Assembly: GCA_041649955.1 (NCBI GenBank)
Contig: JBAZMD010000002.1
Coordinates: forward strand, 7,709 to 71,708
Source: Patescibacteria group bacterium
GTDB taxonomy: Bacteria; Patescibacteriota; Patescibacteriia; UBA2591; JAQUPP01
Reading direction: 5' to 3'
Length of the DNA: 64,000 nt
Position 1 is the stretch's first letter. Each line of letters opens with the position of its first letter. A program made the position numbers. Shown here in pieces: positions 15,001 to 18,000 of this stretch.

Positions 15001-18000
15001 AAATTTAGCCGCTCTGAAACGACGCTCGCCGGCGACAATTTGATATTTTCCCCAACCAATTGAAGTCAAAATCAGAGGTTGAATAATTCCGTATTCGCGA
15101 AGAGAATTGATCAATCCTTCCATTTCTTGATGAGGGAAATTTTTTCTCGGCTGGTCAGGATTGGCTTCAATTTGTTCAAGCGGGATTTCCAAAACCCGCT
15201 CGCCTGTTTCGGCTAACGTTTCTTCGGTGATTTTTTGAATTGTTTTTGGAGGAATTAACGCCCCCAGTCCTCTTCCTAATGACATAAAAACTCTTTAATT
15301 ATTATGTAAAACAAACTCTCTGGCTAAACGATGGTAAGCTTTGGCTCCGCGAGATCGAGGCGCATATTCTAAAATTGTTTTGCCGTAGCTCGGCGCTTCA
15401 GCCAAATAAACATTGCGAGGAATAACTGTTCTGTAAATTTTATGCGGAAAAAATTTATATAATTCTTCCCAGACATCAGCCGACAATTTTCCGCGCGTGT
15501 CATACATTGTCAGTATCGCTCCCAAAACGCTGAGATCCGGCCTTAAATTTTCTTTTATCAAATTGATGGTATTTAAAAGCTGACCCAATCCTTCCAAAGC
15601 GAAATATTCAGCTTGAACAGGAATTAAAACACTGCTTGAAGCCACTAAGCTGTTAATGGTCATTAATCCCAATGAAGGCGGGGTGTCAAAAAATACAAAA
15701 TCAAAATCGTCCGCCAAGGGCTTAAGCGCTTTTGTCAAAAGAAATTCTCTGTCTTCCAAATTGACTATTTCAATATTCGCTCCGGCTAAATTTTCATTTG
15801 CCGGAATAAGCCAAAAATTTTTTCTGACTTCTATTAAACCTTCTGTTAAAGGAATTTTTCCGCTTAGAATTTCATAAATCCCCTTGTCTCTGTTTTCCGC
15901 ACTCACACCCAATCCGGAACTGGCATTGGCCTGCGGATCCAAATCAATAATCAAAACTTTCTTGCCGAATCGGGCAAGATAAGCTGACAAGTTGATTAAG
16001 GTGGTGGTTTTTGCCGTACCGCCTTTTTGATTGACAACACTGATAATTTTCATACCCGCCTAAATTTTTTAATAGCTCCTTCCTGTCTAAATTTTAAAAG
16101 AAAAATTTAAACAGATTTTAATATAATTTTTGCCTCGCCCTGACTTAAAAAACTTGAGCGGGCATAACTTTAGTTTATCACTTTTAAAACGTTTGACAAG
16201 ATTTAAAAAAATGTTAAAATATTGTGAATGCCGCGCCGTCCCATATTTTGCGCCGAGGTGCTGAAACTGGTAAACAGGCTGGTCTCAAAAACCAGTGGGT
16301 GCAAACCCTTGAGGGTTCAAGTCCCTCCCTCGGCATATAAAAATACAAATATGTATGATTGATAAAAATGTATTAGCTTATGTCATTGGTATAGCAATTG
16401 GCGATGGTAATTTATCAAATCCTAACGGCCGCGCCATAAGATTACGAGTAACCTGTGATACTAAATACAAAAATATCATTTCAGAAATTATAGCTTCTAT
16501 AAAAATATTAGTTCCAAAAAATAAAGTTTCTATTGTCCACCGAGAAAAAAACTATATAGACATCAGTTGTTACTCAAATAAATGGGAAAAATGGTTGGGA
16601 TGGAAGGTTGGCTATGGTCCAAAAGTAAAACAAAATATCTCAATACCCACCTGGATTAAAAATAATAAAAAATATTCCATTAAATGTTTAAAGGGATTAT
16701 TAGAAACAGATGGGTCGGTATATTTGGATAAAAATTATAAAATGGTAAATTTTACCACTGTTATTCCAAAACTTGCCAAAGATATAATAAATATTATTAT
16801 AAAATTAAATTTTTATCCACATCTTTATACTATAAAAGATTCTCGCCCAAATAGAAAAACTAAATACATCATCAGGCTTTCTAAAAATGTAACTGAATTT
16901 CTTAATCTAATTAAACCGTTGAAAGATATTAAAATTTAAGGTATCATTATAGTTTAATGACGCGGGGTAGAGCAGCTGGCAGCTCGCCAGGCCCATAACC
17001 TGGAGGTCGTTGGTTCGAATCCAACCCCCGCAATTAAAAGGTGGTGACGAATTTTATAAAATTATTGGCCGAGTAAGAACGCCAAAGCCCATAATCCCGC
17101 TTGAGCGGGATCGGTTGGTCCAACCCCCGCAATTAAATATTTTGAGCAGGTCTTAACAAAATGATGGCAGGGTAGCTCAGCGGTAGAGCACACGCTTCAT
17201 AAGCGTGCCGTCGCGGGTTCGATCCCCGCCCCTGCTATTTATATCATATTTATGACCTTAACCGTTCACACTGCTGTCGGTATCTTTATTGGCAAGTACG
17301 CGTCAAACCCGTTTCTTGCTTTTTTGTTCGGATTTTTATCACATTTTTTACTTGATGCAATTCCTCATGTTGATGAAGGAATTTTTATCCAAAAATATTT
17401 TTACTGTGCAGTATTCGCAGATATTTTTCTTTCGGCTATTTTTATTTTTTGTTTTTTTCGTTTTATCCGACCTGCTTATTCTTCAAAAATTTACTGGGCG
17501 ATTTTAGGATCCGCCCTGCCGGATATATTTACTTTTTTTTATTCTGAGTTACATTTTAAATTTTTAGGAGGATTTTATAACTTACATCAAATTATCCATT
17601 GTCCGGAAAAAATAAACAATCCTGTCTTTTTAGCCGCTATTCAAATAATTTTTCTGGTTTGTTTAATTTTTATTCTGTTTAAAAAAAAGACGAGTCAAAA
17701 ACTCGCTAAATAAAAAAATATCCGCCAAAAGGCGGATATTTTTTTACCTTGGACACTTCCCTGTCAATTCTTGCCACCGTTTATCAATTTCTTGTTGAAT
17801 CTTAATTAAATTATTTTTATCTTTTTCGGAAAATAAATTTTTAAATCTTCCTTGAAATTTTAAAAATTCTTCAACCGGTAATTTTTCTCTCGGCTGATAA
17901 TTTAATTTATAAACGCCGTTTTCTATTTCATAAAGCGGCCAAAAACAAGTTTCTGTGGCAAGCTGCGACATTTTCACGGTCAAATCGGAATTATATTTCC

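Follow-up and report, generated by a model that had tools for sequence, protein, structure and literature searches.

A free-standing LAGLIDADG endonuclease gene linked to tRNA-Leu(CAA) in Patescibacteria that probably moves by replacing its target tRNA gene

Introduction

How does an endonuclease gene come to lie among tRNA genes that carry no intron, and what could keep it there? Homing endonucleases (HEs) are thought to need an intron or intein within a conserved gene, or to hide between phage genes. A 64,000-nucleotide stretch of a Patescibacteria group bacterium genome (GenBank assembly GCA_041649955.1, contig JBAZMD010000002.1, positions 7,709 to 71,708; hereafter the window, meaning this whole stretch) contains an open reading frame (ORF) of the LAGLIDADG superfamily within a cluster of tRNA genes. 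An original prediction described the order tRNA-Leu(CAA), an AT-rich double-motif ORF, an initiator-like tRNA-Met, a partial copy of this tRNA and a second tRNA with a CAT anticodon, and ARAGORN, Rfam and Pfam confirmed this layout. The same prediction took the locus for a site of mobile-DNA activity, a view borne out by comparison with endonuclease-less relatives, which gave a closely related allele without the HE (L088; loci are designated by L numbers throughout).

Here we argue that the ORF is probably a homing endonuclease gene (HEG) of a selfish and intron-less kind, predicted to be active, which sits immediately 3' of tRNA-Leu(CAA) in Patescibacteria and is mobile by tRNA replacement.

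Results

A free-standing LAGLIDADG endonuclease and its family

The ORF matches Pfam LAGLIDADG_3 (PF14528) with 33.1 bits against a cut-off of 22.5. Two motifs are readable by eye in the 194-amino-acid (aa) protein, LAYVIGIAIGDG, ending in D17, and LKGLLETDG, ending in D119. Across the 43 aligned family members, G16-D17-G18 and D119-G120 show no variation, so that the two catalytic aspartates are kept. Only LAGLIDADG-type Pfam families match the protein, and no GIY-YIG domain was found. The ORF is AT-rich, with 24-31% GC compared to ~40% in the flanking ParA and ParB genes.

An AlphaFold2 model (predicted local distance difference test [pLDDT] 95, predicted template modelling score [pTM] 0.91) was compared with known structures using Foldseek, which returned I-DmoI (top match, E 1.4e-9), PI-SceI and I-Tsp061I as the best matches, with template modelling (TM) scores of 0.70-0.75. 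Since a HMMER search of PDB sequences with the family profile gave no match at E <= 0.01, the fold is shown via the predicted structure. As modelled, the protein has the two-domain fold of I-DmoI; two alpha-beta-beta-alpha-beta-beta-alpha domains are indicated by the profile match together with the predicted structure.

The original prediction had placed the endonuclease gene outside any obvious intron. This reading stood, as the tRNAs are intact, no intron model was matched, and the ORF passed as a LAGLIDADG protein both by Pfam profile and by predicted fold. An endonuclease encoded by an intron or intein was rejected on the same observations and on the ORF standing alone. It could nonetheless be supposed that the HE is what remains of an intron-encoded enzyme, left behind when a group I intron that once split the tRNA decayed. 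Group I introns, some with HEGs, are numerous in the tRNA and rRNA genes of Patescibacteria (PMC13011429, PMC11270868), which lends this idea some appeal. We nevertheless regard it as highly improbable: the three tRNAs are complete, a group I model remains unmatched even at E up to 10, and the ORF begins within ~20 nt of the tRNA 3' end in most family loci. Furthermore, the reported tRNA introns of Patescibacteria interrupt the anticodon loop, and any HEG they carry encodes an HNH rather than a LAGLIDADG enzyme (PMC13011429).

Some sources of homologues are labelled WhiA, and WhiA is also among the fold matches of the model. WhiA is a protein of ~315 aa in which degenerate LAGLIDADG domains have lost the catalytic residues and are followed by a C-terminal helix-turn-helix (HTH) domain. 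We considered and rejected the identification of the HE as WhiA: with 194 aa it keeps both catalytic aspartates, none of its four Pfam matches is an HTH family, and the scores of the WhiA Pfam models on it (22.1 and 21.4 bits) fall short of the cut-offs.

A search of 5.8 billion proteins revealed 862 clusters of homologues, and all informative source names among them are Patescibacteria or its candidate phyla. The best 120 homologues are 174-317 aa long, mostly ~190, and share 54-65% identity with the window protein, plus one match at 98%. At least 171 family stretches were confirmed in the species-representative genomes of GTDB; 80 species-level loci were analysed, of which 76 were scorable for tRNA position. 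The 80 loci include Moran-, Falkow-, Magasanik-, Buchanan-, Portnoy-, Doudna-, Niyogi-, Staskawicz-, Nealson-, Yanofsky-, Yonath- and Taylorbacteria as well as Paceibacteria. No family member was detected in the viral contigs of IMG/VR, and hence there is no evidence for a phage vector.

Between the window HE and its 97% relative L001 we counted 14 synonymous and 4 non-synonymous changes, a ratio of non-synonymous to synonymous rates (dN/dS) of 0.07. Other close HE pairs gave 0.05-0.10, similar to ParB. The family is under strong purifying selection, and the gene is intact in 78 of the 80 loci. Damaged-looking copies were seen in L026 (3001-3558), which has an in-frame stop, and in L042 (3001-3513), where the end of the protein, lost through a C-terminal frameshift, can still be read in a different frame. 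Either gene decay or sequencing errors may lie behind them.

The constant partner of the endonuclease is tRNA-Leu(CAA)

In 68 of the 76 scorable loci, tRNA-Leu(CAA) lies directly 5' of the HE on the same strand, and in 3 more it is adjacent in another arrangement. No tRNA-Leu(CAA) was found nearby in 5 loci, 4 of them on GC-rich contigs that probably do not derive from Patescibacteria. The original prediction had tied the endonuclease to tRNA-Met, an association that these counts overturn in favor of tRNA-Leu(CAA). With start codons as we assigned them, the distance from the tRNA 3' end to the HE start codon is 0-20 nt in most loci. Some gene callers run the ORF into the tRNA, which accounts for the N-terminal extensions of some of the aligned homologues.

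The first homologue neighbourhoods checked showed the order of the window, with DnaE-ParB-ParA followed by a divergent tRNA-Leu(CAA) and the ORF. Of the 80 species loci, 42 have ParA or ParB upstream of the HE in divergent orientation. Compared with the 68/76 obtained for the tRNA, this indicates that the constant partner of the HE is the tRNA and not parAB.

A different context was observed in L066, L067, L072 and L073, where homologues 48-51% identical lie in tRNA-less surroundings on contigs of 43-61% GC labelled proteobacterium, Terriglobales or plain 'bacterium'. Either the family extends beyond Patescibacteria in another setting, or these contigs are misbinned.

An HE-less allele coexists with the HE-plus allele

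As tRNA-Leu(CAA) is too variable to provide a specific DNA pattern of at least 14 nt, ParA of the window was chosen as an HE-independent probe, with which 80 metagenomic loci were retrieved. This HE was present in none of the 80. tRNA-Leu(CAA) stands beside ParA in 22 of them, often followed by the same two CAT tRNAs, and none of these 22 tRNA-Leu(CAA) loci of the nearest ParA relatives has this HE next to it.

The closest HE-less locus, L088 (contig Ga0172379_10012562), encodes a ParA 100% and a ParB 99% identical to those of the window, and its flanks share 91-96% DNA identity with the window. It carries, in order, the promoter, tRNA-Leu, 63 nt, the initiator-like tRNA-Met(i), 33 nt and the elongator-like tRNA-Met(e), without the HE. 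Alignment with blastn revealed that its flanks are 96-97% identical to the window up to 16235 and 89% identical from 16926, with nothing alignable between these points, where the window has 690 bp and L088 has 113 bp. Its tRNA-Met(i) is the same tRNA as that of the window but has a different T stem, and the two loci are 100% identical over 17124-17237 (114 nt, second CAT tRNA).

An HE-plus contig of 915 bp, L170 (Ga0172379_10383063), encodes the exact HE protein of the window and comes from the same metagenome as L088 (JGI 3300014208). Therefore, HE-plus and HE-less alleles of one species-level population coexist, and it is under such conditions that selection on a homing endonuclease persists. 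Presence and absence of the HE thus vary at a fixed site, with the window, L169 and L170 being HE-plus and L088 HE-less.

A possible 3' relic of the HE in the L088 spacer was also considered and rejected. The best local alignment of this spacer to the HE consists of the last ~14 nt of the ORF plus the shared spacer, is equalled by 3 of 500 shuffles, and is read as native flank, in which the final 14 nt of the HE ORF lie.

The tRNA-Leu gene is swapped and remnants of displaced genes persist

The tRNA-Leu genes of the window and of L088 are 72% identical, and the promoter just upstream is 97% identical. The L088 gene is closest to the tRNAs of HE-less relatives (best 0.88), whereas that of the window is closest to HE-linked tRNAs of other lineages (best 0.86) and reaches at most 0.76 with HE-less ones. 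Relative to the empty allele, the whole tRNA-Leu gene is swapped together with the HE. The window retains the six nucleotides GCCGCG (16230-16235) of the L088-type tRNA, followed by a 16-nt foreign leader and then by the new tRNA. This 5' end of the displaced gene is the only tRNA-Leu scar in the window.

We searched the family loci for further remnants using a hidden Markov model of tRNA-Leu from the T-arm to the 3' end, counting same-strand matches within 150 nt past the HE stop codon. Fifteen tRNA-Leu 3' remnants were found, whereas the density of matches over the other ~950 kb predicts ~1.3. Of the 15, 14 reach the end of the profile, all but the one in L032 end in GGCAC, and 10 begin at T-loop positions; in L043 and L026 the TAA stop codon of the HE overlaps the T-loop of the remnant. 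The acceptor strand of the remnant differs from that of the adjacent functional tRNA in 12 of 13 cases. Furthermore, the 27-nt remnant of L022 has its own compensatory T stem, GTGGG/CCCAC compared to GAGGG/CCCTC, which indicates that it was once part of a different, functional tRNA-Leu. Co-conversion or replacement of flanking target sequence is thus seen both in the tRNA swap and in remnants with foreign acceptor or T stems. Taken from sequence comparison, these observations suggest that a cassette of tRNA-Leu and endonuclease overwrites the resident tRNA gene.

The same site appears in L098 with an unrelated double-motif LAGLIDADG ORF of 242 aa (3050-3778, minus strand), which starts 24 nt past tRNA-Leu(CAA). 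A displaced tRNA-Leu 3' remnant (2979-2996) lies 54 nt past the stop of this ORF, a layout that points to a second endonuclease lineage at the same site.

The tRNA-Met 3' fragment is a separate, very recent indel

Downstream of tRNA-Met(i), the window contains an exact 19-nt repeat, TCCAACCCCCGCAATTAAA, at 17020-17038 and 17119-17137. The original prediction had described here a degenerate tRNA copy with an 18-nt exact match; the similarity is real, though weak, and the exact repeat is 19 nt long. The degenerate similarity (CGCCAAAGCCCATAA...TCGGTTGG) lies 5' of the second copy, is collinear with the part of tRNA-Met from the anticodon loop to the T stem, and has a local alignment score reached by 12 of 1000 dinucleotide shuffles. 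A hairpin, TCCCGCTTGAGCGGGA, occupies the expected place of the 3' anticodon-stem strand and variable loop. The 131-nt tRNA-Met spacer as a whole folds no better than shuffles (z = +0.41).

Two HE-plus contigs revealed the nature of the fragment. From 16059 and 16163, respectively, up to 17038, L169 (ERZ27249449) and L170 match the window at 100% and 99.8% identity, and both resume at 17119. They carry the HE and lack exactly 99 bp (17039-17137), made up of 80 novel bases and one 19-mer. These 99 bp are also absent from the HE-less L088 and present in the window's own contig (L167/L168). The fragment is therefore a strain-level indel independent of HE presence: a separate, very recent 99-bp indel between 19-bp direct repeats. 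A single insertion is the most parsimonious event, and precise deletion between the 19-bp repeats is also possible. The 80-bp insert contains no ORF and has no second copy in the window or in 170 loci. Hence, the idea that a 3' tRNA copy is an insertion scar, as the original prediction held, survives for the tRNA-Leu remnants of the family, whereas the tRNA-Met fragment is not a necessary by-product of HE insertion.

What, then, produced the fragment? On its left side the fragment is bounded in the T-loop of tRNA-Met(i), as the tRNA-Leu remnants are in theirs, and the same T-loop boundary recurs in the duplicated tRNA-Met(i) 3' ends of L102 and L103, AATCCCAC[C/T]CCCGCAAC. Given these shared boundaries, the fragment, too, probably arose when a break was repaired, or recombination took place, at the T-loop of a tRNA gene in a nuclease-rich cluster.

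It might instead be an old tandem duplicate of tRNA-Met(i), decayed to a pseudo-tRNA and still segregating, from which L169 and L170 derive by slippage or recombination. The two 99-nt units are indeed collinear over much of the tRNA, with indels, the 19-bp direct repeats permit precise deletion, and partial tRNA-Met copies beside functional ones recur in L023, L102 and L103. However, the change from 19/19 identity to heavy divergence is abrupt, none of the 170 loci has a homologous 80 bp in a relative, and parsimony favors one insertion, given L088 and the otherwise identical HE-plus contigs without the segment. We therefore consider a decayed duplicate a possible but rather doubtful origin.

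The original prediction had also invoked an integrase for the tRNA-Met fragment. In this case the fragment would be the attL/attR scar of a tyrosine-recombinase element, integrated at the 3' end of tRNA-Met(i) and since deleted almost in full. The att core used by tRNA-targeting integrases starts in the T-loop or anticodon loop and reaches the 3' end of the tRNA; the exact 19-bp repeat spans the T-loop to just beyond that end. The degenerate tRNA-like stretch directly precedes the second copy, in the place of an attP arm, and the segment varies between strains. Of the hallmarks of an integrase island, direct repeats of the tRNA 3' end were thus found, but neither a recombinase nor cargo between them: the repeats enclose 80 bp that match nothing in the window or in the 170 loci, and no integrase or ORF occurs in this insert or an integrase among the neighbouring genes (ParAB, a 153-aa membrane protein, a thiamine pyrophosphate [TPP] enzyme, PAP2 and peptidase M29). 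Moreover, the flanks are 100% identical to contigs without the segment, so that integration and near-total deletion would both have to be very recent. An att scar is accordingly an unlikely explanation, and no direct support for an integrase was found.

Other cargo in the tRNA clusters of relatives

The window encodes a stand-alone 89-aa ORF (7000-7269, minus strand) in which a GIY-YIG-like motif, YVYILRS...GKFYVGFT, was recognised by eye. A 91%-identical copy of this ORF lies in L087, whose ParA is 100% identical to that of the window, at ~150-400, between ParA and the tRNA-Leu promoter. All that the window has in this place is ...TTGAGCGGGCAT (16155-16165), similar to the start of the 89-aa ORF (ATGCCCGCC) in reverse complement. 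The ORF seems to be a second small nuclease gene, likewise polymorphic at this locus. A further ORF with a GIY-YIG-like motif, of 78 aa, was seen in L103 between tRNA-Met(i) and tRNA-Met(e), and in L092 and L096 a 204-aa ORF with the look, by eye, of a flavodoxin or iron-sulfur flavoprotein lies between tRNA-Leu and tRNA-Met.

A GC-rich element, GGGCAGAAGCGA...GCGCTGCCCAGG, of ~65-100 nt was found in six copies: L023 3799-3874, L102 3455-3534 and 3695-3761, L103 2632-2710 and 3302-3400, and L114 3730-3793. All five copies checked stand between a functional tRNA (Leu, Met-i or Met-e) and its partial copy, bounded in the T-loop or D-loop. The remaining copy, L103 2632-2710, stands between tRNA-Met-e and tRNA-Leu. 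In the HE-less L114, tRNA-Leu is followed by the element and then by an exact copy of the tRNA from T-loop to trailer. The 5' flank of the element comprises 7-17 nt antisense to the T-loop or T stem of the same tRNA. The element matches no Rfam family and has no copy in the window. Gene order among the relatives is ParA followed by Leu-Met-Met or by Met-Met-Leu, and their varied cargo indicates that the tRNA cluster is an insertion hot spot.

Layout of the locus and its tRNA genes

The features of the locus are listed in Table 1. The parAB genes (14437..16053) are conserved surroundings that lie outside the mobile unit. The promoter 5' of tRNA-Leu is the best-scoring site of the region, its sequence is conserved in the HE-less L088, and no terminator-like site was found between 16040 and 17300.

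Table 1. Coordinates of the tRNA cluster, the endonuclease ORF and adjoining features, given as positions in the window.
Feature	Position	Strand	Remarks
ParB	14437-15285	-	Pfam ParB_N/HTH_ParB; divergent from the tRNA cluster
ParA	15295-16053	-	Pfam AAA_31/CbiA; divergent from the tRNA cluster
Sigma-70-like promoter, TTGACA-16-TAAAAT, TG-extended -10	16193..16220	+	5' of tRNA-Leu; 11/12 hexamer matches
GCCGCG, first 6 nt of the displaced resident tRNA-Leu(CAA)	16230..16235	+	Left junction; L088 homology stops here
HE-plus-specific 690-bp segment	16236..16925	+	16-nt leader, tRNA-Leu, 19-nt spacer and most of the HE ORF
tRNA-Leu(CAA), CCA not encoded	16252..16335	+	ARAGORN; Rfam 58.7 bits
LAGLIDADG ORF, free-standing, monomeric, 194 aa, Asp17 and Asp119	16355..16939	+	Pfam PF14528
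tRNA-Met(CAT), initiator-like	16961..17033	+	ARAGORN, Rfam; C1/A72 mismatch; anticodon loop CCCAUAA
Direct repeat, copy 1	17020..17038	+	Last T-loop base, 3' T stem, 3' acceptor strand and 7-nt trailer
Strain-specific 99-bp segment	17039..17137	+	80 bp (17039-17118) and repeat copy 2 (17119-17137)
Second CAT-anticodon tRNA, CCA not encoded	17165..17238	+	ARAGORN, Rfam

ARAGORN found only three tRNA genes in the 64 kb, all on the plus strand and intron-free, and all are full-length in Rfam. Beyond these, no Rfam family was matched at curated thresholds in the whole window, and nothing credible but tRNAs appeared in 15900-17500 even at E up to 10. The first CAT tRNA is considered initiator-like because of its C1/A72 mismatch, a non-standard pair in the Rfam alignment and a hallmark of bacterial initiator tRNA. 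The second looks like an elongator tRNA-Met, and Ile2 is also possible.

The anticodon loop of tRNA-Met(i), CCCAUAA (16992-16998), has C at position 33, which is near-universally U. The same loop occurs in L023, L088, L093, L094, L097, L100, L102 and L103, while the initiator-like tRNAs of L101, L107, L108 and L114 carry CUCAUAA instead. CCA is encoded in the tRNA-Leu and in the second CAT tRNA of L088 and is absent from their window counterparts, which end at 16335 and 17238. Among HE-linked tRNA-Leu genes, ~20 of the 75 in the alignment encode CCA, roughly a quarter to a third.

A promoter-like site, TTGAAA-17-TATCAT (16919-16947), overlaps the final HE codons and matches conserved sequence 5' of tRNA-Met(i) in the HE-less L088. 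The end of the HE ORF thus looks to sit within the apparent native tRNA-Met promoter, in which case tRNA-Met may retain its own transcription start.

Discussion

Our results are most readily accommodated by the following sequence of events. The promoter at 16193 would produce a single RNA with tRNA-Leu, the HE and the tRNA-Mets, from which tRNA 3' and 5' processing would free an HE mRNA with a leader of 19 nt (0-20 nt in relatives). No Shine-Dalgarno sequence is present in this 19-nt leader. The enzyme would then cut HE-less tRNA-Leu(CAA) alleles in or near the T-loop, in the 3' part of the gene, and repair of the break from an HE-plus genome would copy the complete donor tRNA-Leu along with the HEG. 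Because a complete replacement tRNA is supplied, the essential tRNA would never be lost and no intron would be needed. Stubs of the resident gene would persist, here as 6 nt of its 5' end and elsewhere as remnants from the T-loop to the 3' end. Attachment to a probably single-copy essential tRNA may also shield the element from deletion.

Several points weigh against this account. Homing endonucleases of this type make site-specific double-strand cuts in targets of 14-40 bp, and the putative target in or near the tRNA-Leu T-loop is placed from remnant boundaries. A target within the T arm would also occur in the cassette's own tRNA-Leu, and a search for a base in the T-loop or acceptor that could confer self-immunity found none that sets HE-linked tRNAs apart from HE-less tRNAs or from remnants. 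The direction of the difference between the window and L088 (gain versus replacement-loss) is read from the 6-nt stub and from outgroup states, and no donor of more than 65% protein identity was found outside the window's own population. Furthermore, HE identity tracks that of ParA (r 0.57) and ParB (r 0.61), which correlate with each other at r 0.87, and no pair with near-identical HEs in distant backgrounds was observed that would mark long-range transfer. These correlations without outliers point to inheritance that is mostly vertical or within lineages. Pairwise identity of tRNA-Leu correlates weakly with that of the HE (r 0.19) and of ParB (r 0.26).

This vertical signal raises the question of whether the LAGLIDADG protein has been domesticated, as a vertically inherited host gene encoding a WhiA-like DNA binder or a factor in tRNA function or chromosome segregation, and is kept by parAB and tRNA-Leu for co-expression. 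Synteny of ParB-ParA divergent from tRNA-Leu-HE in the 42 loci, ParB-like dN/dS values, a median HE identity of 56%, like that of ParA, and the WhiA labels and fold matches would all suit such a role. In contrast, a domesticated gene fits poorly with the absence of the HE from L088, which has an identical ParA and shares a sample with an HE-plus contig, and from all 22 tRNA-Leu loci beside the nearest ParA relatives. The invariant catalytic aspartates, the lack of the HTH that defines WhiA and the AT-richness of the HE relative to its flanks speak against it as well. Empty alleles, together with displaced tRNA-Leu remnants with foreign acceptor stems past the HE, make domestication an improbable reading, and we retain a mobile HEG that probably replaces its target tRNA.

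A broader proposal can be made more tentatively. The arrangement of functional tRNA, cargo and partial tRNA copy is common to the 242-aa LAGLIDADG ORF of L098 and to the GC-rich element of ~65-100 nt, and perhaps the 80-bp tRNA-Met insert of the window shares this T-loop-anchored architecture. The HE may represent a 'bring-your-own-tRNA' gene drive, in which a LAGLIDADG nuclease would break the resident, probably single-copy tRNA-Leu(CAA) at its T-loop and a cassette of replacement tRNA and nuclease would heal it. The shared architecture could then reflect a general insertion pathway with autonomous and non-autonomous members. We put this forward as a plausible idea that falls short of being the probable one.

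Among known systems, monomeric LAGLIDADG enzymes such as I-DmoI resemble the HE in fold, in size and in having two LAGLIDADG helices that end in acidic residues. However, I-DmoI is encoded in an archaeal 23S rRNA intron whereas the HE gene is free-standing behind a tRNA, and their sequence similarity is below HMMER detection in the search against PDB. In mobility, the HE recalls the free-standing HEGs of fungal mitochondria (e.g. Allomyces atp6), which insert at the 3' end of a gene and supply a substitute for that end. In both cases an intron-less ORF is accompanied by a copy of the target gene, or of part of it, so that gene function is preserved while the old 3' end persists as a pseudo-fragment. 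The atp6-type target is protein-coding, with the ORF often fused in frame, whereas here the target is a tRNA gene that is apparently replaced as a whole. Integrative elements that target tRNA genes likewise show a functional tRNA, cargo and a direct repeat of the tRNA 3' end from the T-loop, as do the HE with its tRNA-Leu remnants and the 19-bp tRNA-Met repeat. They differ in that a recombinase is absent here and the cargo is one nuclease gene or 80 bp. Furthermore, the acceptor stems of the remnants are mostly unlike those of the functional tRNA, which conservative crossover in an identity block would not yield.

LAGLIDADG enzymes such as I-ShaI are encoded by rRNA introns and insertion sequences of the candidate phyla radiation (CPR) (PMC11270868). 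They share with the HE the phylum, the superfamily and the targeting of highly conserved RNA genes, but lie inside rRNA genes, in group I introns or insertion sequences, whereas the HE lies outside its RNA gene and relies on an intact tRNA instead of splicing. The word tRNA does not occur in that paper (PMC11270868).

Closest of all is SegB of T-even phages. This free-standing GIY-YIG homing endonuclease is encoded in their tRNA gene cluster, is statistically co-localised with tRNAs across phages and cuts inside tRNA genes at the motif RAWTSGAAC (PMC13096335). By our reading, this motif would be the reverse complement of the tRNA T-loop consensus. Repair after SegB cutting co-converts or duplicates units of tRNA and segB via microhomology (PMC13096335). 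Both SegB and the HE are intron-less and adjoin tRNA genes, and co-localisation holds for the HE family in its 68 loci. They differ in nuclease superfamily (GIY-YIG versus LAGLIDADG) and in residence, SegB being found in phage and the HE on chromosomes. Moreover, SegB has many sites and no preference for a tRNA isotype, whereas the HE family is tied to tRNA-Leu(CAA), its insertion point is fixed, and its target tRNA leaves displaced 3' remnants. In the literature searched, whose coverage is incomplete, we found no description of a tRNA-Leu-linked family of free-standing LAGLIDADG genes in bacteria.

The HE family looks like a third solution to the homing problem in cellular genomes, beside the intron or intein and the space between phage genes: a position 0-20 nt behind one tRNA gene in the ultra-small genomes of CPR bacteria. 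It extends the link between SegB and tRNA genes, recently shown in phage, to bacteria and to a different nuclease superfamily. If this reading is true, the family would constitute a natural, compact, tRNA-linked gene-drive design and would offer new I-DmoI-like enzymes with predictable targets, useful for engineering. It would also account for the partial tRNA copies of Patescibacteria genomes, where annotation pipelines may overlook or misinterpret them, and would provide a marker for recombination between coexisting CPR populations, which are otherwise hard to study. Patescibacteria thus seem to harbor a large, previously unremarked endonuclease family that apparently spreads by replacing the tRNA gene it targets.

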